From a virus: 64,000 nt of DNA. The stretch is from positions 1 to 64,000 of the IMG/VR virus record IMGVR_UViG_3300008012_000022; one strand, written 5' to 3'. The position numbers and the translations under genes are program-made. The notes below the pieces were generated by a model. That model searched no databases. It worked only from the letters and a program-made list of their open reading frames with translations, and was not told the origin of the DNA. Shown here in pieces: positions 2,165 to 64,000 of the stretch (position 1 is the first letter of the stretch; every line of letters begins with the position of its first letter).

Positions 2165-2566
2165 TTAATGATTAAAGATGAACAACATCAAAATAAATCC
2201 CAAAACAGCCGAAAAACATATTAATGTTTTTAAAGAAAGATTCGCCGCTTTTAAATGACAAAATGCCGCAATAATTCCCAATGTTTGTCTAAATGGAATG
2301 TTATTATAAACTCCGTTGTTAAACCACATCTCGGCATCAGGAGAATCAATAGCATGTAGTGTCCATGCAATGCCCCAATAAATATTGTCGCCGCATTGTC
2401 CGATAAAACTAATAACCACCCCTAAAATTAACCATGCAACCGAATCTTTTTCTATTGCATATACAGTAGAAATAGCTGTTCGCCACCAATGATAAATTAC
2501 AGCTAACGCTAGTATAATTGTTGCAGGGGTAAGCCCCATAGATATTGCTTCCGCTACGTTATTCAT
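2165..2566 (-). CDS. Multi-pass membrane protein of the lysis cassette
   Basis: About 4 hydrophobic segments; translationally coupled downstream of the endolysin. Confidence 0.65.
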   Translation of the reverse strand: MNNVAEAISMGLTPATIILALAVIYHWWRTAISTVYAIEKDSVAWLILGVVISFIGQCGDNIYWGIAWTLHAIDSPDAEMWFNNGVYNNIPFRQTLGIIAAFCHLKAANLSLKTLICFSAVLGFILMLFIFNH

Positions 2567-2921
2567 TTAGTTTGTCTATTGTTTTACGAGTTGTTTGTCG
2601 AATTGCCTCTTCTCTTAAAGCTTTAATTCGAATTTCTTCTCTTGAAAGTTTGGGGTTAAATACCCATTTATACGTACCGACAAACATTAATAGCGATATA
2701 ACAAATGGTATATAAGTATCGTCCATAATTTTAAATATTAAATAGTATTCCTCCATAATACCTGAAATTCTTCTACACGCAATTACACAAAAGGCACTAA
2801 AAAACCAAATATCAGACGGGAAACGTTTATTTAAGAACATTGATTTAGCAAATAAAACGCATACCCCCACCTGCATTGCTACTGATACAAATTCTAAAAT
2901 ATAAGATGTCATATTATGCAT
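2559..2921 (-). CDS. Membrane protein, holin candidate (3 TM, charged C-terminal tail)
   Basis: Hydrophobic segments plus a highly charged C-terminus; lysis context. Confidence 0.55.
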   Translation of the reverse strand: MHNMTSYILEFVSVAMQVGVCVLFAKSMFLNKRFPSDIWFFSAFCVIACRRISGIMEEYYLIFKIMDDTYIPFVISLLMFVGTYKWVFNPKLSREEIRIKALREEAIRQTTRKTIDKLNE

Positions 2922-3579
2922 GTTCGTGTGGCATTAAACTATCAGCAATCCGTTTAAATCTATTAGCTATTAACTGGCATTTGATTTCTGTTTGTTTATC
3001 TATGGGATCATCGCCAATAGTTGCGAACGAACAATAAGTAATCATTCGTGTTCCTTCTTGAGTATCATATGATGCAATATGAAACCACGCAGAATGTTTA
3101 ATATCTTCAGCGACATAAATACTTTTAGTTAATGACTCTGGAATTTGATCTACAGTAAATTTTAATTTATTAGAATTTACAATCGTTCCCAACCTTTCAA
3201 TATAATCCTGATCTAACTCGACAAATTTATAATCCACAAAATATTTAGGATCAGATCTCATTTGAAAAATAGCATTAGTCCACTTAGGTTTTTCTTGACC
3301 ATTGAAAGCGCGTAACACCAAAAATCTATCAATACAAGTTTCTTCAAGCAGAGATTTTAAGTCGTTTTCAATAGATTGCCATTCTCTAAAAAAATCATCA
3401 AATGATAAAGCAAAGCGATGAAGCTCTACTTCATTTTCCACATGATTAAGTCGCACTTGTTCGTTTCGTTTCGCCAAATAGCCAAAATAAGCGGTAGCAA
3501 GAATACCGACCAAACCAAAAAAAGCAATAATAATTTCTCCCCATGGTAATCCATTATCTGTGGCTACTTCTGCAATCAT
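2914..3579 (-). CDS. Single-TM protein with a soluble GAF-like domain (T4 holin T-like architecture)
   Basis: N-terminal TM followed by a ~180 aa alpha/beta domain; adjacent to the endolysin. Confidence 0.45.
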   Translation of the reverse strand: MIAEVATDNGLPWGEIIIAFFGLVGILATAYFGYLAKRNEQVRLNHVENEVELHRFALSFDDFFREWQSIENDLKSLLEETCIDRFLVLRAFNGQEKPKWTNAIFQMRSDPKYFVDYKFVELDQDYIERLGTIVNSNKLKFTVDQIPESLTKSIYVAEDIKHSAWFHIASYDTQEGTRMITYCSFATIGDDPIDKQTEIKCQLIANRFKRIADSLMPHEHA

Positions 3580-4431: not shown

Positions 4432-4445
4432 GTATTTTTTTACAC

Positions 4446-4473
4446 TTGACAATATGAAATTTGGCGCTATTTT
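4446..4473 (+). promoter_or_regulatory. Sigma70-type promoter TTGACA-N16-TATTTT, leaderless, back-to-back with the GTGTAA endolysin promoter
   Basis: TTGACA 4446-4451, TATTTT 4468-4473, ATG 5 nt later. Confidence 0.55.
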
Positions 4474-4478
4474 TATCT

Positions 4479-5003: not shown

Positions 5004-5005
5004 TT

Positions 5006-9039: not shown

Positions 9040-9050
9040 TCTTTAATCAA

Positions 9051-9062
9051 TTACACGTGTAT
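9051..9062. promoter_or_regulatory. Back-to-back GTGTAA/GTGTAT motifs (divergent phage promoters)
   Basis: TTACACGTGTAT lies between ATGs at 9039 (-) and 9073 (+). Confidence 0.6.
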
Positions 9063-9072
9063 AATTAGGTGT

Positions 9073-12617: not shown

Positions 12618-12630
12618 GATATTTAAAATT

Positions 12631-12783: not shown

Positions 12784-12824
12784 CTAATTTATTTTTTTCC
12801 AGTTTTGGTAATTTAAGTGTATTT

Positions 12825-13366: not shown

Positions 13367-14259
13367 GTTAATGCTATTGGTTTATATTCCCAAACGTTTT
13401 CTGTTTCTTCGATGCTTTCGAAATCTTCTTTAAGTAGATGATATCGAAAGAAGTTCTTCCATACTCTATGAGAGTTAACGAAGTGGCCTAACTGTTCATT
13501 ATCTTCGGTGCGAAGATGTTGCATGAAATTTTTCAGACCTTCAACGTTATCAGTTCCACAATAGTTTTCTACTTCAATATGGTTCGCCCAATGACGCATC
13601 ACCTGTCTTATGGTGTCTGCCCTCTCAATAATAGCTGGCGCAAGGGGATCGTCAGGGTCAACGCCTAAGTATAGATGGTTGGTGCGACCATAGCACCAAA
13701 GATATTTAGCTTCATGATCTATCTTGTTATCCACGGGGCGACCACCTTCTTCTCCGTCTCTAATGCGCCACGTATGTTCGTGTTCGTCTTCGCTGAAACT
13801 ATCTTTAAGATCAATAGATAGAGGGCGAACACCATGTAAACCCCAATGAGGACTGCCAAAGAAAACAAGCCCATCATGCCATTTAAAAGCGAATCCTTTT
13901 CCATAATTATAAATACTCTGCACCTTTTGCATAGCCAAACTATCTAAAAGCTTTGGTAATCCTTCAACCCATTCGGAATTGAATCGTTCCATGCTATCAC
14001 GCATGACAAACCAATCACCTTGTTCCATTACAGACTCGCGTAAGAATACATTCATCTGTAGGTCATGGTCGTTAGTCCACTTGCGCCGTAAAACTTCGCC
14101 GCACCCTTTGCGTTCTTCAAGAAGATCAAGTGTTTCCTGATCTGTTTTGTGGTCACATACCCATATCATCCCATCGAATACCTCATGGCACGGATCTGTC
14201 AGTGCTTTGAGGTTATCGAATTCGGATGACGTTATTCCACATAAATATACTTTACTCAT
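13363..14259 (-). CDS. Glycosyltransferase-like protein (GT-A)
   Basis: IWVCD...D.T.DLL, W..DH..QMN, WFVMRDSMER and PHWGL motifs. Confidence 0.6.
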   Translation of the reverse strand: MSKVYLCGITSSEFDNLKALTDPCHEVFDGMIWVCDHKTDQETLDLLEERKGCGEVLRRKWTNDHDLQMNVFLRESVMEQGDWFVMRDSMERFNSEWVEGLPKLLDSLAMQKVQSIYNYGKGFAFKWHDGLVFFGSPHWGLHGVRPLSIDLKDSFSEDEHEHTWRIRDGEEGGRPVDNKIDHEAKYLWCYGRTNHLYLGVDPDDPLAPAIIERADTIRQVMRHWANHIEVENYCGTDNVEGLKNFMQHLRTEDNEQLGHFVNSHRVWKNFFRYHLLKEDFESIEETENVWEYKPIALT

Positions 14260-16077: not shown

Positions 16078-16231
16078 CTCGTTTAGTTACTTTAAATGTG
16101 ATCGGGACTCCGTTAAAAACTTCTACCCGATATTTTTTCTTGAATTCGTCAAGGAAATTTTGCAATACCAATACGTGTTGTAGATCTGCTTTAGGAGAAT
16201 GTCTAATAGGTGGATCGCCAAAGTCAATCAT
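16067..16231 (-). CDS. 54 aa hypothetical protein between the two NAD genes
   Basis: MIDFGDPP...KRDES overlaps both neighbours (manual translation). Confidence 0.5.
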   Translation of the reverse strand: MIDFGDPPIRHSPKADLQHVLVLQNFLDEFKKKYRVEVFNGVPITFKVTKRDES

Positions 16232-17097
16232 AATACATCTACTACAGTTAAATTTCCGCCACTACAATAATCGCTCTGAGAATTGGTGACATATACGTTA
16301 TCAAATTTTTCACAAAGATCGGGTAAACCATTGCGGTTACAATCTATATGAGCCAGCACGATATCAATATGTTTCGCGCCCCTTCCTTTCAGCTTATCGT
16401 GAAGTCCGAGAAACGTGCCACACATAGCGCCAACATCATCAACCACAATATATTGTTGATCAGGATAGAGATCGCTATCAAAAATAGACCCACCCTCTGG
16501 TCCAGACTTATCTTGCACAACAATATTATTTATTTTACCTGTGATAGGATCACGATCTTTATCAGCATAAACAATATCGAACCACCGATCATTAGTATAA
16601 CCCTGACTATCAAGATACTTCATTACTCGACCCGTGCGTTTGATAGCACCACCATCAGGAGATACTAAAATAATATTATCCTTCTTAAATATTGTATCCC
16701 ATGGCATAACTTCCTCAACTTCGATAGTAAAACAATTATTTAAAAGTGCGGGAAGCACATCAGAATGTGGTTCAACAGTTAAAATTTCATCGACATCTAA
16801 TGAATTTAAAAAGTCAGCATAAACCTTTGAGGTTAATGGTTCGCCACTATCACACAAACGATCTTGCCGTGCTGCTGGAATGTAAGGAATCTTAAGAACG
16901 ATATGTGTTCTTTTACCACCTATTAATTCAGTGCGCCGAATTGCATCCACTTTCGTTGCAATCACCATGGGATCAAACCTTGATAAAATGATTACAGTAG
17001 TTGCTCTTAGTAATTGTACATCATTTATTTTACAATGATAGGTTCCGTCAGGAAACCACAGTTGCTCTTTGACTACCTCGCTGAATGTTTTTATCAT
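16228..17097 (-). CDS. Ribose-phosphate pyrophosphokinase-like protein (probable Adps of NARP1)
   Basis: FPDG, PYIPAARQDR, EPHS, SPDGGA.KR, K.RD, IVVDD....GTF. Confidence 0.88.
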   Translation of the reverse strand: MIKTFSEVVKEQLWFPDGTYHCKINDVQLLRATTVIILSRFDPMVIATKVDAIRRTELIGGKRTHIVLKIPYIPAARQDRLCDSGEPLTSKVYADFLNSLDVDEILTVEPHSDVLPALLNNCFTIEVEEVMPWDTIFKKDNIILVSPDGGAIKRTGRVMKYLDSQGYTNDRWFDIVYADKDRDPITGKINNIVVQDKSGPEGGSIFDSDLYPDQQYIVVDDVGAMCGTFLGLHDKLKGRGAKHIDIVLAHIDCNRNGLPDLCEKFDNVYVTNSQSDYCSGGNLTVVDVL

Positions 17098-17102: not shown

Positions 17103-17130
17103 ATTATACTACAACTTTGGCGCTTGTCAA
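17103..17130 (-). promoter_or_regulatory. Consensus sigma70 promoter TTGACA-N16-TATAAT, leaderless start of the NAD operon
   Basis: Perfect hexamers; ATG 5 nt downstream of the -10. Confidence 0.85.
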
Positions 17131-17131
17131 T

Positions 17132-17164
17132 AAAAAAGGTGAGCGACTTTCGCCGCTCACCTTT
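17132..17164 (-). terminator. Rho-independent terminator
   Basis: AAAGGTGAGCGGC-GAAA-GTCGCTCACCTTTTTT. Confidence 0.9.
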
Positions 17165-17208
17165 AGGCAAGATAGCCTCCACCTTTGCGAACATCCACAA
17201 AGGAAAAC

Positions 17209-17457: not shown

Positions 17458-17463
17458 AATTAA

Positions 17464-24419: not shown

Positions 24420-24713
24420 TTCTGATTTTCTATATTATAACGCATTTGGCCTGATAGCCTGACGTATCGTTGAAACATAGGTTGAAACATTCTCCAACCA
24501 CGATCAGGGTCATCGTCTAAACAATCAATAGTGCAATTGTGACGGTGCACAGAGCGACACACCATTGTTAAGACGTGTTTCTAAAAAAGGATAAAGGGAT
24601 CGTGGTTTAATATGGTGAGCGTGCAAGCGCCAAATTGGAAACTTGCCTCCGCATACCACACAATGCCCACCATCTCTTAGGCGAACTAGTCTACTCCATC
24701 TCGTTACGTCCAT
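24416..24713 (-). pseudogene. Frameshifted HNH endonuclease
   Basis: RD...CVVCG...HAHHI...NGVSLCAP, then a break; a second frame continues to a TGA overlapping the next ATG. Confidence 0.65.
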
Positions 24714-25204
24714 TGTTGTGTTTCTATAAGCGCCCGAAGGTTGCGTTTAAGATCGTCCATACTTCCGTTGTTGTCAACCCAAAAGTCTGCCATCCATGGT
24801 TCAATATCCATAGACTCATTAGATTCTTTTGGTAATACATCTGAACGATCAATCCATATAGCTGCATCGAATAGGTTCTGATTTTTCAAAGCATAGAATT
24901 CGCGCCGACTTCTGATGCCACTATAAATATCATGGCGCTTGAAAATCTCGCGGCCTAATCTAGCTGGATCATACCTGTTATAATCACAGATCAAATCAAA
25001 CCATTCGTCACGGTGATTATATCTATCCTCGAAACATTCTTCTTTGGAGGTATAACCATATTTATCTTTGAGTGCACTATAGATAAACAAATCATTTGCA
25101 ATGGCGCTACTACCCTGAGTAGTCAGAATAGGATAGTCAATACATAGAAAATCTGCCGAAGTATCTTTACCATGCCGAGCATAGCCCATGATGATTAGTT
25201 TCAT
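24704..25204 (-). CDS. Deoxynucleoside monophosphate kinase-like protein
   Basis: IMGYARHGKDT P-loop, GIR...E, VDNNGS..DL. Confidence 0.8.
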   Translation of the reverse strand: MKLIIMGYARHGKDTSADFLCIDYPILTTQGSSAIANDLFIYSALKDKYGYTSKEECFEDRYNHRDEWFDLICDYNRYDPARLGREIFKRHDIYSGIRSRREFYALKNQNLFDAAIWIDRSDVLPKESNESMDIEPWMADFWVDNNGSMDDLKRNLRALIETQQWT

Positions 25205-25743
25205 GATTTTTCAACAATCTTACGTAAATCAGATTTTTTTGCAAGTGGTCGTGTGTTTCGAAAAACATCAAGAGTAGTTTGCATCGACTGTTTCAAGTTT
25301 TTGACTTGATCATCTATATTTTGGATAACCAACTGTTCAACTACAATTAACTGTCCAACTGGTGCACTCAATAGTTCATCCATACTATCAACAAATTTGT
25401 AAATTGGAATACCGCGCCATTGAGCAAGCATCACCTCTGCCTTTGCCCCTGTTGAATGTTCCCATCCATTAAGTAACGCTAGCGCATCAACAGTTTGAAT
25501 GACTTCTACATCGCGACGAATACAATCATCCGTAAATTCCCGAAGCTCCTGCTCATTCATGTGATCAAGATCATCACCACCTGTAGGATCATAGCTAATC
25601 GCCCTATCCATATCTGCTGGTGATATTACAATCCAATCTTTTTCCAACCTCGATTTAGCATAATCAAACGCAGGAAAATTATGTTTAGGATAACCAGTCA
25701 TAGGACCAGCTACATAGATCTTTTTCTTTTTATTACCAATCAT
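25201..25743 (-). CDS. DUF4406/nucleoside 2-deoxyribosyltransferase-like protein
   Basis: IYVAGPMTG...NFPAF, SPA, L.GWE.S.GA.AE. Confidence 0.85.
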   Translation of the reverse strand: MIGNKKKKIYVAGPMTGYPKHNFPAFDYAKSRLEKDWIVISPADMDRAISYDPTGGDDLDHMNEQELREFTDDCIRRDVEVIQTVDALALLNGWEHSTGAKAEVMLAQWRGIPIYKFVDSMDELLSAPVGQLIVVEQLVIQNIDDQVKNLKQSMQTTLDVFRNTRPLAKKSDLRKIVEKS

Positions 25744-26101
25744 GTTTAAAGCTGCGAATAAATTTAACAGTTGCTTCATTTCGAAAAGGTTCTAACTCTT
25801 TCTCACTGTAACCCTTTTCTAAAAGTTGGGTATGGATATCTTTTACATCTATAATGCAATGCCTCTGCAACCCAAAATCCTTAATCCAATCCACTGCCCT
25901 ACCGAACAGTTGTTCTAACGAATCGAATACAGTATACCAACCACGCTTGCCAAAATCATAGTTAGTTAGTAAAATCCAACGTTCATCAGTATTGAAATGA
26001 TAATTAGTAACGAAAGATTCTACATCCTGTTTGATCTTATCAGCTTTTTCCTGATACTGATCAACCATTATTTTTAATATTCTATAATCTGTAGTAGGCA
26101 T
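25733..26101 (-). CDS. Hypothetical protein
   Basis: ORF in operon, start at MPTTD. Confidence 0.5.
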   Translation of the reverse strand: MPTTDYRILKIMVDQYQEKADKIKQDVESFVTNYHFNTDERWILLTNYDFGKRGWYTVFDSLEQLFGRAVDWIKDFGLQRHCIIDVKDIHTQLLEKGYSEKELEPFRNEATVKFIRSFKHDW

Positions 26102-26102
26102 T

Positions 26103-26498
26103 TTAATAAAGGTGCAAGTCTTGTGCTGCTTTCTCACACATAGCGGCAATCTGAACCAGTTCCTTGAGAGCAGCTTCTCCATTCAACTGTTTTTCTTTTA
26201 CCTCGTCCCAAAACTCGTCTAACTCTTCACGGATGATACCGTATGCTTCATGAGGTGAATGCATATCACCATGAAGTTCACGTGACCGTGCTAGTTCAAC
26301 AGCTACCCGTGCCGCAAATGGAGAGGTGCCTTGTGAAGAAAATAAATCTCGTTCACCGTCCATAAATGATTGTGCCTCTTCATATTCTTGCATTTCACGC
26401 TCAAGAATCCTTTCGTTTTCATCATCCATCGCATTCATTCCTGCCAACACTGTATATAGCGAAGTTGACGGATCTATATTTGTTAAATCATATTTCAT
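26103..26498 (-). CDS. MazG-like nucleotide pyrophosphohydrolase domain protein
   Basis: HEAYGII.EE.DE.WDEV...ELVQIAAM. Confidence 0.7.
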   Translation of the reverse strand: MKYDLTNIDPSTSLYTVLAGMNAMDDENERILEREMQEYEEAQSFMDGERDLFSSQGTSPFAARVAVELARSRELHGDMHSPHEAYGIIREELDEFWDEVKEKQLNGEAALKELVQIAAMCEKAAQDLHLY

Positions 26499-27003
26499 CT
26501 GTTAATTCTAATACTAATTCAAATAGTGTTTGTTTGTCGAAGTCTTTAGCTCCGAAATTATATACAGGAATGTTCAATGTCTCTGCCATCTTAATTCCTT
26601 GACCAGTGCCGCCCGTATCGTTTCCGTTCTCTGTCCAACACACAACGAACTCCACTGGAGAGTTAAGCTTCGGTCCTAAAAGTTGATGGACATTCCGCGC
26701 CAATAACTTTTGTGATCCAACGGATTTCTCTTTCCAGTTTGGATGAAACCTTGCCGCCATGGTATGAGCCTCTTTCGAAGGAGTGAATAATTTAGAGGTA
26801 TGACCATTAAATCCGCGCCACGGAAGAAAGATTTGTTTGTTAGCAGGTATCACATACTTCTCAAAAGCTAAGTCTGCACCTTCGGCACCACCTGAACGAA
26901 GAGTTAACCCTTGATCTTGCGCCCATCTACCGAACTTCTCAAATGATACTTGAATATCATCTGGTATAGTTCGCCGCCCTATTCCTGCGTAATACATTCC
27001 CAA
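26488..27003 (-). CDS. SLOG/DprA-like Rossmann-fold protein
   Basis: YAGIG.R, LRSGGA.GAD.AFE, RN..Q.LG, GGTGQ. Confidence 0.8.
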   Translation of the reverse strand: MGMYYAGIGRRTIPDDIQVSFEKFGRWAQDQGLTLRSGGAEGADLAFEKYVIPANKQIFLPWRGFNGHTSKLFTPSKEAHTMAARFHPNWKEKSVGSQKLLARNVHQLLGPKLNSPVEFVVCWTENGNDTGGTGQGIKMAETLNIPVYNFGAKDFDKQTLFELVLELTDEI

Positions 27004-37019: not shown

Positions 37020-37275
37020 AACTTTCTAAACTAAGATATGTTCTTTCGTGAATAATTTTAATCGGAATATCAAAAAAAGTTGGAAAAGGGACTCCAATCA
37101 ATCCCAACCCCTCTAACTCTGCTGTTCCTAAATGAAGCTCTTTAACTAACGCTGAAATAGGATAGTTTTTAAGAACAAAATTCGCACTAGCCAGACTGCG
37201 GCGATAAGAAACAAGAAAATCAATGATGCGATCAGCAACGCTAAAGTCCTTGACGTTTAATTTCGTTGTGATCAT
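37012..37275 (-). CDS. Hypothetical protein
   Basis: Coupled ORF. Confidence 0.5.
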   Translation of the reverse strand: MITTKLNVKDFSVADRIIDFLVSYRRSLASANFVLKNYPISALVKELHLGTAELEGLGLIGVPFPTFFDIPIKIIHERTYLSLESYG

Positions 37276-38365
37276 GTTGAACCATCTTACTTACTAATCC
37301 CTGAAAGTCAAGTAGGGGTTGCCAATTTAAATCTTCTCTTGCTGGAATTGAATCGCCCCAAAGTAATTCAACTTCATTGGGTCGCCAAAATTCAGGATTT
37401 ACCTTTACAAATGTATCTGTAATACCTGTGCGAGTAACACGAAACGTTTCCTTCTGTCCCTTGCCGTGCCACTTACCTTCTATACCTAATTCCTTGAACG
37501 ACAATTCAACAAATTCACGAATAGTATGAGTCTCATCACTAGCAAGAACATAATCTTTGGCATGGCGATTATCGAATTCATAAACGCGCCCAACAGTATA
37601 TGCTTCTTCACATCCATGAGCACTAGAAAAAGACTTGTCTTGATTTAACATGCGCCAAATTCCATCCATGAAATCCATGCTATCACTCCAGTCTCGCTTA
37701 ACTCCGAGATTACCTAATTCAAGTGGTGTAATAGGAACACCTCTATCTAGTTGATGTCTGATGCGTGCCACAGCTTTAGAAATCTTTCGTGTCACGAATT
37801 CTTCTCCCCGTCTAACTCCCTCGTGATTGAATAACAATCCTTGAACGGCATAAATGCCATAAGATTCGCGCCAGACTTTTACCATGTGATGCGCCGAACA
37901 TTTTGATATACCATATGGTGATCGTGGTCGGAACGGATGAGCTATATCTTGTGGTGAATATTTTACGTCACCAAATTGTTCGCTTGATCCTGCATTATAG
38001 TAACGACAGTCTGGTGCATGACGCCTGATTGCCTCCAGTTGATACATGACAGGCATAGCATTGTTCATCATGTGTTGCACTGGCATCTTCCAACTCGTGC
38101 CGACAAAACTATTCGCCGCAAAGTTGATAAAGTAATCAGGTTCTTCTTCCTGTATGATAAGGTTAGTATTTATTTGATCTGTAACGTCAAGGTCTATCAG
38201 CTTGAACCGTGGCTCATCTTTTAGATGTTCAATGTTTTCGTGATTCTTGACAGATAGTCGGCGCACTCCACCTACTACTGTATCATCAGTATGCTTAAGC
38301 AGGTAGTCAACCATATTGCTACCATCTTGCCCTGTTACTCCTGTAATTAAAATTTTCTTACTCAT
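37241..38365 (-). CDS. gmd: GDP-mannose 4,6-dehydratase
   Basis: ITGVTGQDGS, SSE.FG, PRSPYG.SK, LFNHE..RRG.EFVTRKI, LGNL..KRDW. Confidence 0.93.
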   Translation of the reverse strand: MSKKILITGVTGQDGSNMVDYLLKHTDDTVVGGVRRLSVKNHENIEHLKDEPRFKLIDLDVTDQINTNLIIQEEEPDYFINFAANSFVGTSWKMPVQHMMNNAMPVMYQLEAIRRHAPDCRYYNAGSSEQFGDVKYSPQDIAHPFRPRSPYGISKCSAHHMVKVWRESYGIYAVQGLLFNHEGVRRGEEFVTRKISKAVARIRHQLDRGVPITPLELGNLGVKRDWSDSMDFMDGIWRMLNQDKSFSSAHGCEEAYTVGRVYEFDNRHAKDYVLASDETHTIREFVELSFKELGIEGKWHGKGQKETFRVTRTGITDTFVKVNPEFWRPNEVELLWGDSIPAREDLNWQPLLDFQGLVSKMVQHDHNEIKRQGL

Positions 38366-38504
38366 TATACAAAAATAAACACTCCGAGAAATATCCCCAC
38401 TACAAGGCTCTGCACAAGACCTTGCCACCACTCGTCACTAGTATTAAATAATACAAGATAAATAGGTACTGTTAACGCTAGTTGCTGCCAATAAGTAACT
38501 TCAA

Positions 38505-38816
38505 TCATCGAATAAGTTCCCCCATAATAAATGTGTCAGGTCCACAACGTGTAGTATTGACAGCCTCTTGAATATCCAGAATAATTTGCTCCAACAAAAT
38601 ACCTTGATCTAACTTTATTTGGACTTCGTTGCGGTCCTTATCTGCTTGCGCCCACCGAACACCTTCGACACGGAACACAGCTAGTTCTACTGCTGACTCA
38701 CAGTTGCCACAACCCATACCTTCAATAGCTATGACTCGTGCATCTGCTGGATATTCTACTTTTTCGGCGCACCCAATTAGTGCTACTGCCGCTATGATTG
38801 ATAGTAATAATTTCAT
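38505..38816 (-). CDS. Lipoprotein with a heavy-metal-associated (HMA) domain
   Basis: Lipobox LIGC; IEGMGCGNC...VE.A...VEGV. Confidence 0.8.
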   Translation of the reverse strand: MKLLLSIIAAVALIGCAEKVEYPADARVIAIEGMGCGNCESAVELAVFRVEGVRWAQADKDRNEVQIKLDQGILLEQIILDIQEAVNTTRCGPDTFIMGELIR

Positions 38817-39448
38817 TTTTGATAACAACTCCACACTGCCGCATTAGCTTCCTCAGTGCAGAAATCTTTTAAGTTTTCATTGAGAACAGTAGCAGAAATC
38901 TCTCCATACCAACTCTCATGCCAGTCCCATCGTTTGCCTAAATATTCGGCCTCAAATATTTCTTTGTTTGGTGCGTAGTCGTGAGTCATGATGACATCAC
39001 CCGTTTTAAGATATGGAGAAAGTAATTGGAACTCAAGGTTTTTGTCACCACCATCACAGAATACTAACGATTGACCTTCGTTTTGAATTATTCCTCCAAT
39101 TCTTTCTATCATATGAAATATGTTACCATGCACCCTCATAACTCTATTGGACAGTTTCGATTTCTCTAACGCTTCAATATCGTAAGCATAAATGGGAATA
39201 TTTCTTGATAAACAATGATCATGAAGTAATGAGGTAAAACCTCCATGACGATAACCCAACTCAAGAATTCTCATTGGTGAAGTTTCACGCGACAACTTAT
39301 TTAGAAACTCAAATATATTATTGTTTTGTTCTGTTCTAACCCCTTTATAGAAAAAAGGATAATAGTCTTTGTCAGGGAACTCAGGATCAGGAACCACATT
39401 GTTCATGTTTATTCCATAGCGCCATCTTTTATATAATTTCTTTATCAT
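38813..39448 (-). CDS. Class I SAM-dependent methyltransferase
   Basis: ILELGY..GG, YDI, FCDGG.K, L..GD.I..HDY. Confidence 0.75.
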   Translation of the reverse strand: MIKKLYKRWRYGINMNNVVPDPEFPDKDYYPFFYKGVRTEQNNNIFEFLNKLSRETSPMRILELGYRHGGFTSLLHDHCLSRNIPIYAYDIEALEKSKLSNRVMRVHGNIFHMIERIGGIIQNEGQSLVFCDGGDKNLEFQLLSPYLKTGDVIMTHDYAPNKEIFEAEYLGKRWDWHESWYGEISATVLNENLKDFCTEEANAAVWSCYQK

Positions 39449-40275
39449 ATCCACCAATCTAGCACATAGTCTGGTCTTCCATCATAATTTGGTTCATCCA
39501 ATCCATCAACTGGAAATTTTTCGCGCCTGACTCCGAGATCCTTACCCCACTTCTTACTTATATATGTTAGCTCAAGAGAGTCAGGGAAGTCTACGTGTCG
39601 TGGCGCGTGGTTGTTAGCGTGCATGTGCCACAACCAAAAATGTTTGTTTAGACCCTCAAAGAATCTCAGTCTACCAGCAAAGTCACGCTTTGCCTGTGCC
39701 AACTGTGGCTCAAGCACCCATCCATCAGGAACTTCTTCGATTAAAGAATGAACCTCAATACATATGACAGCGAAGTAACTCTTAAGCAGTGCAAGGTTAT
39801 CATCATTTAACCAATCATATTCGTGACCTTCAATATCCATCTTCAACACATTAAAGTCAGAACCACCTCCAAACGTATTTTCTTTAAGATGTTTATGAAA
39901 GTTGTCTGCCGTTAAATATTCCTTGTAGAACTTTCCGTATTGTATTTTAGCAGGAACTTCATCAATGGAACCGTCATACATAGATATCCAATTATAATCT
40001 TTATCTAACGACTGTTCAAATGATACACCCTCAGGATCGTCGCCAATACCATATGACAAAATCTGTAATGGTGAGAACTCCACCATTTGTGCAGGTAATA
40101 CATAAGACCCATCACCCACACCACAACGACAGAACTTATAAGTATAACTCCAGTATTTACCGTCGAATTGACTGCTCAAACGACCAGTCCAATTTTTCAT
40201 CTCTACATTGTGCGGCACCAGTAGATCTTTTAGGCGCTGATATTTATTTGGATTCTGTTCATCAAAAAAGGTCAT
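39445..40275 (-). CDS. FkbM/Methyltransf_22-like methyltransferase
   Basis: GDGSY, SYGIG....SFE, LKMDIEG.E, IEVH, H.NN, ELTY. Confidence 0.8.
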   Translation of the reverse strand: MTFFDEQNPNKYQRLKDLLVPHNVEMKNWTGRLSSQFDGKYWSYTYKFCRCGVGDGSYVLPAQMVEFSPLQILSYGIGDDPEGVSFEQSLDKDYNWISMYDGSIDEVPAKIQYGKFYKEYLTADNFHKHLKENTFGGGSDFNVLKMDIEGHEYDWLNDDNLALLKSYFAVICIEVHSLIEEVPDGWVLEPQLAQAKRDFAGRLRFFEGLNKHFWLWHMHANNHAPRHVDFPDSLELTYISKKWGKDLGVRREKFPVDGLDEPNYDGRPDYVLDWWI

Positions 40276-40457
40276 TGTAAATAAGGTAAAAAATTCCAGA
40301 TATTAACACAAGAAAGCTTCCTATAAATATCATTACGGTATAAAAACGATGGAAAAAGGAATAGAGTGAAGGGGTATAGCGCCCGAAATAATGGTTGGCG
40401 ATTAGACCTAAGACCGCAAAGCTCCAAAATAACCAACAGTATAGATGTAACTCTATA

Positions 40458-41405
40458 CTATCTTGCATAACAAATACATGGGTTATTGTTTTCTGTATAC
40501 CCCCCACAGTGAGGACAAACCATATAATTTTCCTCAAACTCTTCGAAAGTCATCAAATTCTCATAATTTAATTTCCAATATTCCCATTCGGGGGTTTCAG
40601 TCCCGTCCAATTGTGATGGGTCAATTGTTGCTGGTTTCTTATTCCACACTTCGAATGAATTATCTGCCCACGCATTAATGATACGACCTTCCTCAGGCCA
40701 ATTACCACCTAATGCTAGCTGCCATTCAGACTCGTCAAGCGGCGGAAACGAAAACCTTTCAGTAGGTTTCTTTAAACAATATACCACCTTTGTGTCGGGG
40801 TGATGTTTCCAACAACTACCATCTGGATTGCTACGAACAGAATCTCTACCCTTGTCTATGAATAGCGGCGAACCATTTGGTAGTCTAACTGTATAGAATC
40901 TATTCAAATCTTCTGCTTCCAAATAATTTTGGACGCACTCTTCTGTCCACTTCAAGTCATCGAGCGGACCCGGCCCTCCAAAATTCTTTGGTACGGTGAG
41001 ATAGAAATCGCGGCCTATAAATTGTGCCCTTTCACTATACCCTCCGTTACCCTGATTACCTGCTAAGTCTACGTATGTATAACCTTGATTTTCTATCAGG
41101 TCAACAAAGCCTCTAATGTCTGCTTCGTATACTGGATTAGCTAGTTCATGATCTACTTGAATATAGAATGCATACTCACTCTGACACTGACTGAATAATT
41201 GCACGGTGCCAGCACCACAACCAATATTGATCTGGTTGTTGATTACCTCCACCCTCTCTTCACGAGCATACTTGTCAGCGTATCGTTCGCCACCATTGTT
41301 GAGAATCACCACCTTGTAATCGAAGTGACAAAGCCTCCTGATGGATGATAGTAGTTCCTCCAGTTCCTTTGGTCGATTGTAATCGAGTATAAGAATTTCT
41401 GTCAT
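40458..41405 (-). CDS. Family 2 glycosyltransferase-like protein with a Cys-rich C-terminal appendage
   Basis: ILDYNRP.EL..LL.SI, N..NIG.G.G, Q.DH. Confidence 0.75.
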   Translation of the reverse strand: MTEILILDYNRPKELEELLSSIRRLCHFDYKVVILNNGGERYADKYAREERVEVINNQINIGCGAGTVQLFSQCQSEYAFYIQVDHELANPVYEADIRGFVDLIENQGYTYVDLAGNQGNGGYSERAQFIGRDFYLTVPKNFGGPGPLDDLKWTEECVQNYLEAEDLNRFYTVRLPNGSPLFIDKGRDSVRSNPDGSCWKHHPDTKVVYCLKKPTERFSFPPLDESEWQLALGGNWPEEGRIINAWADNSFEVWNKKPATIDPSQLDGTETPEWEYWKLNYENLMTFEEFEENYMVCPHCGGYTENNNPCICYAR

Positions 41406-44501: not shown

Positions 44502-45511
44502 TAGAATAAATCGTTCTCTGAAATCGCCTTATTTTTGCGCACGTAATTAGTTGGTCGCTGATTGAAAAAATCTACATGGACACCAGCAATTAGCTTCTCG
44601 TCAAACCATCTGGTTTTTTCAAGACGAGCTTCATTTACGTCAAATATAGGGTCTAATCCTATTCCTGTCAAGCTTTCATTTAGCCTATTCTTAATAAAGT
44701 CTTTCACTTCTAAGATTTTTATATGATCTGGCTTGCATCCATCCACTGTTGGTTCAAAGATTAAATCGCCATCAGGAAAAATCCATTTCAATAACTTCTC
44801 TTCAGCGCGATAAGCCTTGCGAGAGTAGAGGTAAATGAGTTTTTTTAACTCATCATTGAAAAAGTCAGGATGTTCTTCTTTAATCTGGTTGATTAACCAC
44901 GTGCCAAACATTCCATGAATTGCTTCCTCCTTCGAAGTTGCCGCGACTACATTGTTGATATCTACCAGCCACTTGCGATGCTTGTTGAAGGATTGAATGA
45001 TAAAAAACTGAGAAAATAACGAAACATTTTCTATAAAAAGAGAAAATAAAATGATTGATTTGAGGAAATTCTCTTCCAGTCTTGCCGTGGAGAACTCTTT
45101 ATATTTCGTTAGGTAAACGTGACGGTCATTCACCGCAGGAATTTCTTTAATCTTCTCGAACTCTTCGTTTAGCCCCAAAATTTCTAACAGTGCAGAGTAT
45201 GCATCAAGATGACGTTTCTCTGACTCACCAAATGTAGCGCCAACTCCGAGCACTTCTGGTTTAGGTATGTGACGATGTAGGTTGCACCAGAAAGTTTTGA
45301 CGCCAACCTCTACTTGAGATATTAGAAGTAGGCATTTCTTAATTACCTCTCTTTGGTAATCATTTAGTTCGGTGTGATATTCTTGAATATCTGTTGTAAA
45401 ATTAAACTCTGTATGTACCCAATAGGATTGTCGGATTGCTTCTACGTAATCTTCACAGATTGGATACTCAAGTGGTTTAATATTATCTCTCGGTTCGAAT
45501 AAGTCGCTCAT
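44501..45511 (-). CDS. nrdB: Ribonucleotide reductase beta subunit, class Id-like
   Basis: W.HTE, SQVEVGVK, E.RH..AY, IENVSLFSQF, EE.IH, DFF..RPTNY. Confidence 0.92.
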   Translation of the reverse strand: MSDLFEPRDNIKPLEYPICEDYVEAIRQSYWVHTEFNFTTDIQEYHTELNDYQREVIKKCLLLISQVEVGVKTFWCNLHRHIPKPEVLGVGATFGESEKRHLDAYSALLEILGLNEEFEKIKEIPAVNDRHVYLTKYKEFSTARLEENFLKSIILFSLFIENVSLFSQFFIIQSFNKHRKWLVDINNVVAATSKEEAIHGMFGTWLINQIKEEHPDFFNDELKKLIYLYSRKAYRAEEKLLKWIFPDGDLIFEPTVDGCKPDHIKILEVKDFIKNRLNESLTGIGLDPIFDVNEARLEKTRWFDEKLIAGVHVDFFNQRPTNYVRKNKAISENDLF

Positions 45512-46007
45512 GGTTTGTGTCTAATTGATTAAGTTGCGCGAACTCACCAAACAAACACATGGCTTTTCGATTATAAGCCTTAGCAGCTTCGACTTCTGAA
45601 TCAAATCTGCCGATCCAAATCTGTTTTCCTTCGAAACGAATACTTGCCAACCATTTAGAGCGTCGTTTCTCCCAACAAACCCCCTTGTATTGACTAGTAG
45701 TTTTAGCTTTTTTAAATCGATTACGGTTATTTTCTGCTTGAGTGCATTCGCGTAAATTTGAAAAATGATTATTCTGTACGTTACCATCTTTATGGTCTAC
45801 GAATTCAGGCCAATAATCATTTTCCAAAAAGAACACAAGGCGATGAACATAAAATGTTTTTTTGCCGTCTTGTGTTTCTAATATTAGGCGCAATTTTTTA
45901 TTATCACGCCTAACAGGAGATGAAATTCCTTTCTTAGAAATAACACCTTTAGACCTATTGTAATCGACTTGATTAAGAAGTTCTGCTCTGGTTAATAAGT
46001 TTTTCAT
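45483..46007 (-). CDS. HNH-AP2 homing endonuclease
   Basis: HRL, VDHKDG...NN..SNLR, YKGV.W, IGRFDSE.EAAKAYN. Confidence 0.9.
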   Translation of the reverse strand: MKNLLTRAELLNQVDYNRSKGVISKKGISSPVRRDNKKLRLILETQDGKKTFYVHRLVFFLENDYWPEFVDHKDGNVQNNHFSNLRECTQAENNRNRFKKAKTTSQYKGVCWEKRRSKWLASIRFEGKQIWIGRFDSEVEAAKAYNRKAMCLFGEFAQLNQLDTNHERLIRTER

Positions 46008-46476
46008 AATTAGTATCCAGATCAGAAATGGGCATATCATAGACATCTAATTTAGCCACAAAGCCGTTCTCTTTGCACACGTCACCCTTGCGGACACGTA
46101 TACCCTGAGAAATTAATTCGTCGTGTTTTTTAAAGCCGAGAAACCAGCCTTTTGTTAAATTTTTATGCACACGCACGAACGCATAGTAATCACAGTCCTG
46201 TAAATAATAATCAGCAATGGTGCACATATAATGAGGTAGTGGAGTTACCGAAGTCATTTTGGTTTTAACGTCTATTGTTAAACCATTCTCTAGAACGAGA
46301 TCGTATTCGTATGTGTTTGCAAATTCGCCGCCTAAAACATGTTGTGCGATGTGCTCTCCTATAAAACCAACTAAATTCCCTGCACCTTTTCTGATCGAAT
46401 GATTGAGATGACCTAACTCATCTGCTTTTTCTTTTGCGGACTGATACCACTCGTCTGTGACTTCAAACTCGATCAT
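45973..46476 (-). CDS. PD-(D/E)XK-like nuclease
   Basis: G.IGE, YDL, IDVKTK, D.Y.FV. Confidence 0.65.
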   Translation of the reverse strand: MIEFEVTDEWYQSAKEKADELGHLNHSIRKGAGNLVGFIGEHIAQHVLGGEFANTYEYDLVLENGLTIDVKTKMTSVTPLPHYMCTIADYYLQDCDYYAFVRVHKNLTKGWFLGFKKHDELISQGIRVRKGDVCKENGFVAKLDVYDMPISDLDTNYEKLINQSRTS

Positions 46477-46903: not shown

Positions 46904-47521
46904 ATGGATAACGATTTTATGCAGTTTTCAGGGTCTAACAGGTCCGAAATGGACGACAATTATCTCGTATCGTTGGTAAAAGATGAAGCAGATGAGGGAG
47001 CTTTGTTAGAGTTGATGGAACGTCACAGTGGCATCTTTCATCAGACCGTAGCTAACTTCATGCCGCCATCTTATACGAATTCTCAGCGGGAAGATGTCTT
47101 TGAGGAAAAGCCGACTTACTTCTTCGAAGCTATCGCCTCATTTGACGAAGCTCGTAACGCAAAATTTTCAACATGGCTTGCGAATAAAACTAAGTACACT
47201 CTACTTACTCAAAGGTCAAAGGTAAAGGGTCAACCTACATTCTGTGAGTATGACGACAGCTTAGGCGGCGAACATGGACTGTCACCAGAAACATATCTGT
47301 TGCGAAAAGACCAGTCAGAAGAAATTCTAAATTTGGTCCTTGACAAATATGGATCTGAGGTCTACGATATCGTGAAGCAGAAATATTTTGGTGGTGAGAA
47401 GAAGACTGGACAAACGTTCAGTCAAATTGCTGACGGTTTAGGGGTATCACCTCAAGCCATTCAAGCAAAACATAAAGACGCCATGTTATTTTTGAAAAAG
47501 AAACTATCGTATGATTTTTGA
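46904..47521 (+). CDS. Phage RNA polymerase sigma factor (sigma70 family, regions 2 and 4)
   Basis: AL.EL..RH, AI.SFD..R..KFSTW, C-terminal HTH TF.QIA..LGVS. Confidence 0.88.
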   Translation: MDNDFMQFSGSNRSEMDDNYLVSLVKDEADEGALLELMERHSGIFHQTVANFMPPSYTNSQREDVFEEKPTYFFEAIASFDEARNAKFSTWLANKTKYTLLTQRSKVKGQPTFCEYDDSLGGEHGLSPETYLLRKDQSEEILNLVLDKYGSEVYDIVKQKYFGGEKKTGQTFSQIADGLGVSPQAIQAKHKDAMLFLKKKLSYDF

Positions 47522-47978
47522 TCGGCAAAAAATTCTGGAAAAATACAATTATAATCCAGATATGGGAATCTTAATAGCGAAAGATTCTGCCAAAATTATT
47601 GGTGCTTTAAATACTAGTTCAAAATATTTACAAATAAAACTTGATGGGCAGCAACCCTTAGTTCATCGAATTATTTATTTTTTAGAAACAGGAGAACAAC
47701 CTGAAATTGTTGATCATATTGATGGTGATACTCGTAATAACCGTATTACTAATCTTCGCGCCTCAAACAACCAATTTAATCAAGCTAATCAAATTCAACA
47801 TAGGGGCTATTCGAAATATAAAGGTGTTTGTTTAGACCGTAAGTATTGGAAAGCTAGCATTCAATATAATAGAAAATCTATCCATATAGGCAATTTTAAA
47901 ACAGAATTAGAAGCAGCACAAGCTTACGATAAGAAAGCAAAAGAACTTTTTGGAGAACACGCACGCACAAATTTTTAA
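47511..47978 (+). CDS. HNH-AP2 homing endonuclease
   Basis: VHR, VDHIDGD..NNRI.NLR, SKYKGV, IG.F.TE.EAA.AYD..A. Confidence 0.9.
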   Translation: MIFDRQKILEKYNYNPDMGILIAKDSAKIIGALNTSSKYLQIKLDGQQPLVHRIIYFLETGEQPEIVDHIDGDTRNNRITNLRASNNQFNQANQIQHRGYSKYKGVCLDRKYWKASIQYNRKSIHIGNFKTELEAAQAYDKKAKELFGEHARTNF

Positions 47979-55874: not shown

Positions 55875-55879
55875 GAATT

Positions 55880-61306: not shown

Positions 61307-62865
61307 ATCAAGAATGTTTTATTCAATGAAATTCTATTGTTACCTGTTTCACAAGAATGAGATAGTAAAGTCCCATCTTGCACCGAATATTGTTCCATCC
61401 ATCCTGAAACTGTTAATAGCGCCGAACTTACTGACACTCCAGTTGGCACGATACCATTTACACTGATACTTTTTCGTTCACGAGTTTGAAATAATTCTTG
61501 CACACAAAACGAATCATCAACAGTAGGTGATATTTTCCATCGTGGCAACGAATGCTCACATGTAACTGTTACGTTGGGATTGAATAGTTGCCCTGAAAAG
61601 ATATCGATCTGATTGTTATAAGTATATTCGTATTCGATTTGAGATTGGAAAGGTGACTTGTTGATGTTAAATGTCTCATAACGAGTCTCCAATGGTCTAT
61701 CAGAATAATCTAAACCAGCTTCATTGAAATAGTTGAAATGTAATTGAGTTATCGCAAACGGATTAACACCAGAGAAATATGCTTCCACTTTCTTGTAGCG
61801 AGTTTCTTCCTCTGGTGCTTCGGTCAAGAATATATCTTTGTATGAATCATAATATACTCTACCACGTATGTTAGCCTTTATAACTGGATCGGTTTTATTA
61901 GCGGCGAAATTTACTGTGAAGTCGTGATTAACTTCTCCCGTCTTTGGGTTCGATGGGTCTGCAAAGTTAAACGCGAAGCTTATAGAGTTAGCACCTGTAA
62001 CCTCTGTATATTCATAATCAGAAGGTCCACTAAATACATTATCATAATAACCATCTTCAAGTAATGATTTGAAATTCTGTGTTGCTTCTTGAGCGAACTC
62101 TTTAGCTTGTTCAGGTGTGAAGTCTCCTGTAGAGACAGCGCCAGATATACCTCCACGGATCGTTCCGTTGACAGAGACAGTGAAATCTTCTCCATTGTAA
62201 TCTATTTGTGCTGTTGGGCGAACGATAGCTGTTGCTGTATCATACGAATTGATAGCAGTGCTTAAACTCCACGTCTCTGCTATCCCATATGAATTGTTTG
62301 CCCTATCTAACGTCTCAGTTTTATTATCAAGTATCATCGTGTCACCTGAAAAATATAGAGAGATAGCTTCAAAACCATTCATTCTTCCATTAACGAAATT
62401 GCGAACTTTCGTTAACGAGTCTGCATCAGTTTTTACCGCACGTGCTGATACATTATGAGTAGCAGTAACTATTCGTTCATCCTGTTCTGTGAAATTCCAT
62501 ACGTCTATAGGATCAAGTATACCGAAGAATTGAGAGAAATCTTGTTCTTGATAAGCTTCGAATCTTACTTCATATGGCAGAATCTTTGTTAACTCCGACT
62601 CTCTAAATGATATACTGATAGGTTTAGCATATGTGAATCCTGTATTTCCAACTGTTAACTGTTGGAACCCTGTGGTTAATGCATCTACTAGTTCATCCCG
62701 TTGAATCTTTAACTCCGTAAGATTACAACCTGTTAACTGTCCTATCAGCCCAACATTTTGGCGCAAGTAATCCAACTGACCACTTAGAAAGATAGATTCA
62801 TTATCTAAATCTAAAAATGGAGCAGGACTAAAATCATAGTTACCATATGAAACTGTATTACTCAT
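61303..62865 (-). CDS. Tail/baseplate structural protein
   Basis: Beta-rich; P.P.L..and L.G.LTG N-terminus; structural operon. Confidence 0.6.
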   Translation of the reverse strand: MSNTVSYGNYDFSPAPFLDLDNESIFLSGQLDYLRQNVGLIGQLTGCNLTELKIQRDELVDALTTGFQQLTVGNTGFTYAKPISISFRESELTKILPYEVRFEAYQEQDFSQFFGILDPIDVWNFTEQDERIVTATHNVSARAVKTDADSLTKVRNFVNGRMNGFEAISLYFSGDTMILDNKTETLDRANNSYGIAETWSLSTAINSYDTATAIVRPTAQIDYNGEDFTVSVNGTIRGGISGAVSTGDFTPEQAKEFAQEATQNFKSLLEDGYYDNVFSGPSDYEYTEVTGANSISFAFNFADPSNPKTGEVNHDFTVNFAANKTDPVIKANIRGRVYYDSYKDIFLTEAPEEETRYKKVEAYFSGVNPFAITQLHFNYFNEAGLDYSDRPLETRYETFNINKSPFQSQIEYEYTYNNQIDIFSGQLFNPNVTVTCEHSLPRWKISPTVDDSFCVQELFQTRERKSISVNGIVPTGVSVSSALLTVSGWMEQYSVQDGTLLSHSCETGNNRISLNKTFLI

Positions 62866-64000
62866 TAAAATAATTGTAGGCTAATACCGCTTGAACTGTC
62901 TGTTTAAGTATGTTTTCCGTTGTAGTTTGGCGCACCAAAAAAGAATAATCTGCATCAGGCGCAAACCCACTAGCAAATGATAATGCATTTGGCACTAAAA
63001 CATCATTAGTTTTTGCAGTTAAAGATACATTAATCGTTCTTTCTCCGAGCGTTTTACCTGCTCCTTGTACTAATATCTCTTCGTCACCGTAGATAGGAAT
63101 AACAGTATCTCTACTCACAGGTTTTCTATCTGAAATAGTTGCTGTTCGAAGTAGAGTGCCATCTGCTAATCCAGAAAACTGTGGATCAGTAGAAAATCTA
63201 GAGGTGTCAGACACGGTGTTGCCGAAGGGTTCAAACGAAACATTTCTGTCAACTTCGAAAAGTTCGCCAGAAGTTACTTCGGGAAAGAGAACTGGAATTT
63301 TACTGTATGGCAAGTTGGTGTTACTCTTCCAATAATCTTTGTTACGAGTAAACTTCGTAACGTCGTTCTTTCCCCTTGACGACACCGTTAGGTTAAAAGT
63401 GAAACTGTCAAAACCCTCTGGCGATTCGGTCTTCGCCGCAGAGTAGTCTATATTTGTATTATTATTTCGGCGCGGGTCATTTGTGAATTCTACATCTAAT
63501 GTAGCTACATTACCCTGCTCTGATACCCCTTTTGAAATAAGGGTGGGTTGACTGTAGGCACCCGTGTTAGCTTGAATTACAGCGTCTAATGTGCCAGTGA
63601 TACCATGTATTATATTCGCTTCGTATGGTTCAGAAAGCGCCCGAATTTCAAACGAATAATTTTTTAGTTTGTATCCATCTGACTGTAGCACCGTCTTCGA
63701 AGTCTCTGATTTAGAAAAAGGAAGGTTAGCAGTTGTTTCTATCCTGCTAGTTTCTAAAGATTCTGAAAACTCGACACTCTTGTTAAGTATATCAATCGAT
63801 TCAGTTGCGACAGGTTTAAGTCCCGCATCTACTCTTCCCCATTCAGAAATACCATCTTCCTGAAACCCATAAGCTGGACGGTTATTTAGATATACATTCT
63901 TTAAGAATAAGTATGCTTTGTTTAAAAACTCACCACCAGCATCTTGACGATACTTTAACGAAACACTTCGTTCATAACTATATGAATTCTCGCCGCGATT
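62858..64000 (-). CDS. Tail structural protein, 5' end beyond the window
   Basis: The frame of ORF 62858..63691 stays open to position 64000. Confidence 0.7.
   Translation of the reverse strand, partial: NRGENSYSYERSVSLKYRQDAGGEFLNKAYLFLKNVYLNNRPAYGFQEDGISEWGRVDAGLKPVATESIDILNKSVEFSESLETSRIETTANLPFSKSETSKTVLQSDGYKLKNYSFEIRALSEPYEANIIHGITGTLDAVIQANTGAYSQPTLISKGVSEQGNVATLDVEFTNDPRRNNNTNIDYSAAKTESPEGFDSFTFNLTVSSRGKNDVTKFTRNKDYWKSNTNLPYSKIPVLFPEVTSGELFEVDRNVSFEPFGNTVSDTSRFSTDPQFSGLADGTLLRTATISDRKPVSRDTVIPIYGDEEILVQGAGKTLGERTINVSLTAKTNDVLVPNALSFASGFAPDADYSFLVRQTTTENILKQTVQAVLAYNYFNE

Follow-up and report, generated by a model that had tools for sequence, protein, structure and literature searches.

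The stretch examined here is the first 64 kb of the 93,368-bp record of an uncultured freshwater phage in IMG/VR (IMGVR_UViG_3300008012_000022), which has a GC content of 39.6%, is about 67% complete, and is 96% coding. These 64 kb are called the window below, and the full 93,368 bp the record. The replication genes of the window encode a DnaE-type polymerase, a DnaQ-like exonuclease, a PD-(D/E)XK nuclease, a DnaG-type primase, a DnaB helicase, and a Rad51/RecA-like protein. They are accompanied by genes for ribonucleotide reductase, a nicotinamide adenine dinucleotide (NAD)-salvage pair, GDP-mannose dehydratase, many glycosyltransferases, and two HNH-AP2 endonucleases. Downstream of the window, a 4,456-residue open reading frame (ORF) is immediately followed by a gene block conserved in relatives. 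The subject of this report is a short word, GCGSCGAA (S being G or C), which is dispersed through the window and the rest of the record in two forms, GCGGCGAA and GCGCCGAA.

The phage is a member of a large aquatic phage family with genomes of 130-150 kb. A total of 22 freshwater metagenome runs (2017-18) contain the stretch or parts of it. In the four of those runs that were compared with the stretch, the pieces match it almost exactly, with no microdiversity, and the loose contig ends in the metagenome pieces aligned to it show no coincidence with word sites. Among the IMG/VR relatives, none exceeds 62% polymerase identity, and a scan of one metagenome for closer relatives returned only bacterial-type DnaE proteins at ~33% identity. 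The nearest relatives by protein comparison have polymerases at 88%, 68%, and 65% identity. Among the phage proteins that were scanned against Pfam or PHROGs, no integrase was seen, and the phage is lytic-looking.

Abundance and consensus of the word

With 26 copies, 12 on the plus strand and 14 on the minus strand, GCGGCGAA is the commonest octamer of the window. The initial annotation, which was made by eye, had listed 25 of these copies, and all of its coordinates and strands proved exact; one more copy at 14095-14102 (-) turns its 12:13 split into 12:14. The excess it described holds and is larger than it had stated: in dinucleotide-preserving shuffles of the window, GCGGCGAA occurred 0.89 times on average and 6 times at most. 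In the whole record, 40 copies of GCGGCGAA and 28 of GCGCCGAA make 68 copies of GCGSCGAA, 34 per strand, which corresponds to a density of about one per 1.4 kb (0.73 per kb). The hard core GCGSCGA occurs 108 times.

Words related to GCGGCGAA had also been described as frequent, and they do exceed synonymous-codon shuffles of the whole record: GCGCCGAA was observed 28 times against 2.4-2.6 expected, GCGCCAAA 19 times against 4.6, and GGCGCGAA 13 times against 1.5-1.6. In addition, a mild excess was seen for GCGCCGAT, a one-off neighbour of the word with 14 copies in the record. When all octamers were screened against synonymous shuffles, the top four were AGCGGCGA, GCGGCGAA, GCGCCGAA, and AGCGCCGA, with z values of 13-17. 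By raw number, AGCGGCGA (35 copies) is the runner-up to GCGGCGAA, with which it shares a 7-base overlap.

The word has sharp limits. Its first G is obligatory, being present before 40 of the 41 CGGCGAA strings, and the base after GCGSCG is A in 108 of 116 cases, while the strings with C, G, or T in that place show no enrichment. A occupies position 8 in 63% of cores, and 59% of copies have it at position 0; otherwise there is a weak T-rich tail, and the flanks outside those nine positions carry less than 0.3 bit of information. Because the flanks show no further conservation, GCGSCGAA is a sharply defined short word and no fragment of a longer repeat, and the uninformative flanks also rule out a mobile element. 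The word is asymmetric, and TCGGCGAA has no copy at all.

Coding controls

Almost all copies (66 of 68, 97%) are located within ORFs. The earlier statement that they lie mostly inside genes is thus correct, yet uninformative in a record with such a high coding density. All six frames relative to the gene are represented among the copies in ORFs, which encode a variety of peptides, including AAN/AAK, GGE, SGE, APN/APK, FAA, SP(P/R/L), and RR. CpG is not depleted overall, and the word recruits the minor codons GCG, CGG, CCG, and TCG.

Three null models were applied to the 68 copies of GCGSCGAA. Shuffling the codon order inside genes gave 4.7 copies, and shuffling synonymous codons with the proteins kept gave 7.3. 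A synonymous shuffle that also keeps the first base of each codon and of the next codon gave 14.4 (maximum 24). These models are conservative, since the codon pool already includes the codons of the word. The initial annotation had named codon-preserving shuffles as the control under which the excess might disappear; it persists, so this refutation fails. A peptide or codon artefact is ruled out by the six frames, the varied peptides, and the protein-preserving shuffles. These results, together with the sharp specificity and the even spacing described below, argue for reading at the level of DNA, and there is good support for the word as a recognition site in the DNA, as opposed to a side effect of coding.

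Spacing and orientation

The copies had been described as fairly evenly spaced and non-polar, and both descriptions hold for the whole record. The gaps have a coefficient of variation of 0.755, compared to 0.98 when sites are placed at random (p ~0.01); the largest of them measures 3,610 bp, compared to 6,500 expected (p ~0.0005); and there is one gap below 150 bp, compared to seven expected. The closest two sites, 34 bp apart, are on the same strand and do not form an inverted pair. Moreover, the pooled G and C variants are spaced more evenly than either variant by itself, which suggests that GCGGCGAA and GCGCCGAA serve one function. Density is uniform over the replication, glycan, and structural modules. 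The orientations are balanced along the contig (34+ : 34-), with a random number of runs and no overall alternation in a runs test, and they have no link to the direction of transcription (37 sense and 29 antisense copies).

The use of both strands and the even spacing, which is near the scale of Okazaki fragments, would also suit a preferred start site of the phage primase on lagging-strand templates, and a DnaG-type primase is encoded at 30653-31708 (-). However, this primase is conserved (37-48% identity) in relatives that have no comparable word. Its N-terminal domain keeps the spacing of a zinc-binding domain but has no Cys/His ligands, and the same is true of all aligned relatives; the primase was rejected as the reader because this zinc-less domain is family-wide, does not differ in this phage, and occurs in relatives without the word. 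Known primase sites are 3-5 bases long. A role in priming is very improbable.

One regional pattern of orientation was seen. Between 8148 and 38770, the orientations of neighbouring sites follow the order ++--++--, in which ten runs in succession have a length of exactly two (permutation p = 3e-5, lag-4 autocorrelation +0.41); the run statistic was chosen after the pattern had been seen.

Origin of the word in this lineage

To compare orthologous sites, the phage proteins were aligned to the DNA of up to 80 relatives with 46-62% polymerase identity. Of ~1,200 comparisons at the 29 sites that could be aligned, 3 had the word at the orthologous position. Some sites lie in conserved peptides for which relatives use other codons and this phage uses those that spell the word, for example IGA at 20476, AAN at 38113, VRR at 38258, and APT at 85623. 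At others, the word is completed by a departure from the residue that is dominant or universal in relatives, for example Lys to Arg at 31012, Thr to Asn at 43113, Asn to Arg at 87300, Asp/Glu to His at 22906, and Phe to Ala at 52515. With an overall divergence of ~45%, residue differences alone are unsurprising; the point is that every site is new. The 41 related records examined whole (30-200 kb) contain 0 to 14 copies of the word each. Judging from these alignments, the word is derived in this lineage through point substitutions, both silent and amino-acid-changing.

The relatives were also screened for private octamers of their own, and none comparable was detected. Two of them (G028 and G024) have a mild excess of AGCGGCA. 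A third (G001; 148 kb, 35% GC, 100% complete according to CheckV and listed as linear) contains 53 copies of GCGGCG against ~10 expected, 34 of which fall in one arc over the record ends (141.5-147.7 kb and 0-26 kb). This arc may be a mosaic segment of different history.

An origin through ~100 point substitutions in one lineage, even at conserved residues, could also be read as a functionless by-product of biased mutation or repair, for example very-short-patch (VSP)-type mismatch correction tied to a sequence-specific host or phage enzyme. Such a drive needs no benefit at each site, and the one-off neighbours GCGCCGAT, GCGCCAAA, and GGCGCGAA are indeed mildly enriched (14, 19, and 13 copies). 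A repair-bias origin has been proposed for HIP1, a cyanobacterial palindrome. However, drive alone predicts random spacing, whereas the observed spacing is more even. The transition neighbours for which VSP-type repair predicts a depletion are not depleted (GTGGCGAA 6, GCGGTGAA 5, and GCAGCGAA 4 copies), and GCGCCAAA is enriched. HIP1 and most cytosine-methylase sites are symmetric, which the word is not, and no methylase or Vsr gene was found among the scanned proteins. We consider repair bias without function an unlikely explanation.

A proposed Chi-like role of the word

Taken together, the data show a genuine, sharply delimited word that acts at the DNA level, has no polarity, is evenly spaced, and arose in this lineage. 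Very probably a protein recognises it, and selection maintains it, either alone or along with a recombination-linked drive. The reading that we favour, tentatively and about level with a reader encoded by the phage, is a Chi-like tag for an end-processing nuclease of the host. GCGSCGAA, often with a preceding A, would have been written into the genome by point substitutions regardless of gene, frame, and strand. A host helicase-nuclease of the RecBCD or AddAB type that enters an exposed phage DNA end would soon meet the word, and this encounter would switch the enzyme from degradation to recombination or repair. As a result, replicating or newly injected phage DNA would be protected and recombined. 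Both orientations and even spacing would be needed if the ends can fall anywhere, for example through headful, circularly permuted packaging or through two-way rolling-circle tails. Three parts of this scheme are what we infer: that a protein reads the word, that the reader is a host nuclease, and that the genome ends are permuted.

Phages rich in the Chi sequence of their host have been described (Zheng et al. 2025, PMC12315714). The 94.8 kb of P1 contain 50 Chi sites, E. coli phage LLS carries 23, and Pseudomonas phage MD8 carries 32 copies of the host octamer GCTGGCGC; Chi ranks first among the octamers of LLS and P1, and the octamer ranked second overlaps it by 7 bases (PMC12315714). The word resembles Chi in these phages in being the top octamer, in its density (about one per 1.4-1.9 kb), in having a runner-up with a 7-base overlap, in its location inside genes, and in that codon usage provides no explanation. 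It is asymmetric, it is the commonest octamer of the phage, and codon usage leaves it unexplained, which is the combination expected of a Chi-type sequence. Lambda red gam phage is under strong selection for single point mutations that generate Chi. Furthermore, a host-encoded reader would explain the lineage specificity of the word, as the relatives without it are at 46-62% polymerase identity and many of them come from other habitats.

The initial annotation had dismissed a Chi-like role on account of the non-polarity. The observation is correct, but the dismissal is too strong, because polarity is expected with fixed ends and is not required with circularly permuted ends. In phages with fixed ends, Chi is expected to be polar (PMC12315714). 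Chi is distributed 20:3 in LLS and 32:0 in MD8, with sites near one end in both, and no polarity is given for P1 (PMC12315714).

Several observations weigh against a Chi-like tag. No host genome carrying the word is known. In metagenome bins, the phage-type GDP-mannose dehydratase is often associated with Flavobacteriales, a weak hint at Bacteroidota, and the enzyme has no named close matches that would serve as a host clue. Among 401 sampled Bacteroidota genomes, AGCGSCGAA was not above a reversed-word control, the top value being 0.06 per kb compared to 0.43 in the phage, and in a 400-kb stretch of one Bacteroidota genome the word was neither in excess nor strand-skewed. The strand balance of 34:34 with random runs, along with the even spacing, differs from the polar and end-concentrated Chi sites of LLS and MD8, and it fits Chi only on the assumption of permuted ends in a contig that is 67% complete. 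The Chi-rich lambdoid phages have no recombination genes of their own (PMC12315714), whereas this phage has several: it encodes a RecA/Rad51-like protein, a PD-(D/E)XK nuclease, and a DprA-like protein, all of which except the DprA-like one are common to relatives that are without the word. Those phages also carry the proven Chi of a known host, while the present word has a central G/C wobble. The wobble lies in a quasi-palindromic CGSCG core, which resembles a double-stranded DNA recognition site more than a target for single-strand reading by RecC or AddB.

On the host side, one candidate was rejected. A 115-kb contig of a Flavobacteriaceae metagenome bin (G045:C160) appeared to be word-enriched, and the signal turned out to be merely an island of 55% GC. 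This contig has ~55% GC in its first 40 kb and 35-43% after that, and it may be chimeric or island-bearing. In the literature, no paper containing the word was found, and it is absent from a preprint on Chi motifs of Proteobacteria.

Candidate readers encoded by the phage

The initial annotation had proposed a binding or marking site for a phage protein. The DNA-level site is borne out; for a phage-encoded reader, no dedicated gene was found among the scanned proteins. With such a reader, the word would be a genome-wide binding, nicking, or marking site that serves to organise, protect, or label the DNA as 'self', and all evidence for a DNA-level site applies equally here. A quasi-palindromic CGSCG with S at its centre is a typical target of double-stranded DNA-binding proteins, and the lack of an excess in the 401 genomes of the candidate host phylum fits as well. 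Compared with five relatives fetched whole, ~60 genes have no homologue, including most genes at 0.1-19 kb and 24-27.4 kb, so a phage-encoded reader could exist; the candidates are one of these lineage-specific genes or an HNH nuclease. The phage encodes two HNH_3+AP2 proteins, at 45483-46046 (-) and 47511-47978 (+), as well as a third, weak HNH. Some AP2 domains bind GC-rich DNA.

However, the two HNH-AP2 genes are ordinary, widespread phage homing endonucleases in a typical homing position beside reductase genes. The family is represented in ~2,490 phage records at no more than 50% identity to these two proteins, with no close homologue. One relative (G002) has homologues of both proteins, yet it contains only 2 copies of the word. 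The AP2 domains were rejected as readers of the GCC-box type, because the Arg/Trp base-contact pattern is missing (compared by eye with ERF1). Among the scanned proteins there is no DNA methyltransferase, base-exchange enzyme (transglycosylase or DpdA), ParB, histone-like or nucleoid protein, dedicated DNA-binding protein, or Vsr, and the methyltransferase domains are only of sugar or RNA type. No reader was identified in this way. Multi-site systems of phages, such as the L5 stoperators, follow transcription, whereas the word does not (37 sense to 29 antisense). A phage-encoded reader is a tentative proposal, about as probable as a Chi-like tag.

A narrower form of this explanation, slightly more doubtful, is a private 'self' tag read by the lineage's own protein, that is, a phage-owned equivalent of Chi or a marking or nicking system. 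If this is true, the acquisition of the reader would have forced ~100 substitutions, some of which change core replication enzymes, and the tag would let a virus tell self from non-self by sequence instead of by base modification.

With regard to their position, the HNH_3+AP2 genes are located between the ribonucleotide reductase genes and a plus-strand gene block; a locus at 90853-91224 (+) of the record was noted together with them.

Comparison with other known systems

The word resembles the uptake signal sequence (USS) of Haemophilus and the DNA uptake sequence (DUS) of Neisseria in several respects: a density of about one per kb, equal orientation, more-than-random evenness, location in genes in several frames, and an origin by substitution. 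It could therefore mirror a genome signature of the host, such as the uptake sequence of a naturally competent bacterium, given that its 0.73 copies per kb on equal strands, evenly spaced and in several coding frames, match USS and DUS. These sequences, however, belong to bacterial chromosomes and are driven by transformation. The word occurs in a lytic-type phage, which would not be subject to uptake-driven drive, and no carrier bacterium was found among the genomes searched, nor was a paper that mentions it. Uptake sequences also often form inverted pairs at terminators, whereas only one site of the word lies in a hairpin. We regard a host signature of this kind as quite improbable.

HIP1 (GCGATCGC) of cyanobacteria is likewise a GC-rich octamer that occurs about once per kb in all frames and whose function is disputed. 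Unlike the word, it is a palindrome with cognate methyltransferases; the word is asymmetric, and no DNA methyltransferase was found. Dozens of asymmetric copies throughout the genome are also known as the stoperators of mycobacteriophage L5 and Cluster A, which are read by one protein, the repressor gp71. They differ in being oriented with transcription and mostly intergenic, while 97% of the word's copies are in genes. Finally, the nicks of T5, phiKMV, and phage tf occur at a short dispersed consensus, which contains GCGC in T5. These nicks are confined to one strand and number 4 to ~14, in contrast to ~70-110 copies on both strands for the word.

Chi, uptake sequences, HIP1, and similar hyper-abundant words provide some of the rare examples of a whole genome visibly shaped by one DNA-reading protein. 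For phages, the only case worked out is the host Chi in a few coliphages and Pseudomonas phages. The present word is unpublished and denser than Chi in P1; it is non-polar, even, absent from relatives, and partly paid for in protein changes. Should the host be the reader, the word predicts the Chi-type sequence of the host and offers a purely sequence-based host assignment. If the phage reads it, it would be a new kind of genome-wide self-marking.

Sites and further features of the window

The sites of both forms in the window are listed in Table 1.

Table 1. Positions of GCGSCGAA in the window, with gene context and comparison with relatives
Form	Position	Strand	Remark
GCGGCGAA	2241..2248	-	
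GCGGCGAA	3828..3835	+	
GCGGCGAA	6186..6193	-	
GCGCCGAA	8148..8155	+	
GCGGCGAA	8552..8559	+	
GCGGCGAA	10485..10492	-	At gene edge
GCGGCGAA	14095..14102	-	Absent from the initial annotation
GCGGCGAA	14603..14610	+	
GCGCCGAA	16933..16940	+	
GCGGCGAA	17149..17156	-	Within terminator-like hairpin, followed by T run
GCGCCGAA	19486..19493	-	
GCGGCGAA	21610..21617	+	DnaE polymerase gene, antisense; SPR here, other residues in relatives
GCGCCGAA	22906..22913	+	Polymerase gene; Ser-Ala pair common in relatives, minor codons TCG and GCG; His here, Asp/Glu in relatives
GCGGCGAA	23373..23380	-	Polymerase gene, Ala-Ala-Lys
GCGGCGAA	26970..26977	-	
GCGGCGAA	27840..27847	+	
GCGGCGAA	31012..31019	+	Primase gene; Arg here, Lys in 48/63 relatives
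GCGGCGAA	32693..32700	-	
GCGGCGAA	34197..34204	-	
GCGCCGAA	34511..34518	+	
GCGCCGAA	37891..37898	+	
GCGGCGAA	38112..38119	-	GDP-mannose dehydratase gene, Ala-Ala-Asn; peptide in 33/41 relatives, word in 0
GCGCCGAA	38763..38770	-	
GCGGCGAA	40865..40872	+	
GCGGCGAA	42128..42135	-	
GCGCCGAA	42857..42864	-	
GCGCCGAA	43112..43119	-	Ribonucleotide reductase gene; Asn here, Thr in 8/8 relatives
GCGCCGAA	43828..43835	+	
GCGGCGAA	46324..46331	-	
GCGGCGAA	47265..47272	+	
GCGCCGAA	48434..48441	-	
GCGCCGAA	49946..49953	+	
GCGCCGAA	52062..52069	+	
GCGGCGAA	52515..52522	+	Phe in relatives, Ala here
GCGCCGAA	52815..52822	+	
GCGGCGAA	53257..53264	+	
GCGCCGAA	53744..53751	-	
GCGCCGAA	54354..54361	+	Intergenic
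GCGCCGAA	56246..56253	+	
GCGGCGAA	57641..57648	+	
GCGGCGAA	59904..59911	-	
GCGCCGAA	61419..61426	+	
GCGGCGAA	61901..61908	+	
GCGGCGAA	63432..63439	-	
GCGCCGAA	63466..63473	-	34 bp from preceding site, the sole gap below 150 bp

The only site in a hairpin is part of a GC-rich, terminator-like structure at 17130-17180 that is followed by a T run. This hairpin is located downstream of a phosphoribosyltransferase-like gene (16228-17097), which itself adjoins the nicotinamide phosphoribosyltransferase gene.

A lineage-specific cluster of nucleotide-metabolism-like genes was observed at 24704-27003 (-), with no homologue in the five relatives fetched whole. It comprises genes for a deoxynucleoside monophosphate (dNMP)-kinase-like protein (24704-25204), a nucleoside 2-deoxyribosyltransferase-like DUF4406 protein (25201-25779), a DUF7020 protein, and a DprA-like/Rossmann protein (26488-27003; phrog_768, E = 2e-50). 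This cluster may hint at a non-standard nucleotide or at some processing of DNA.

Between the primase and helicase genes, 31687-32463 (-) encodes a 258-aa protein that has no homologue in relatives. Its structure is confidently predicted to be a six-bladed beta-propeller (SMP-30/NHL/DUF4915-like, TM ~0.83), which would be an odd fold for a replication module. In addition, a glycan module at 37241-41405 and other loci encodes GDP-mannose 4,6-dehydratase, FkbM- and FtsJ-like methyltransferases, and several glycosyltransferases of the GT2, GT1, and GT9 families.

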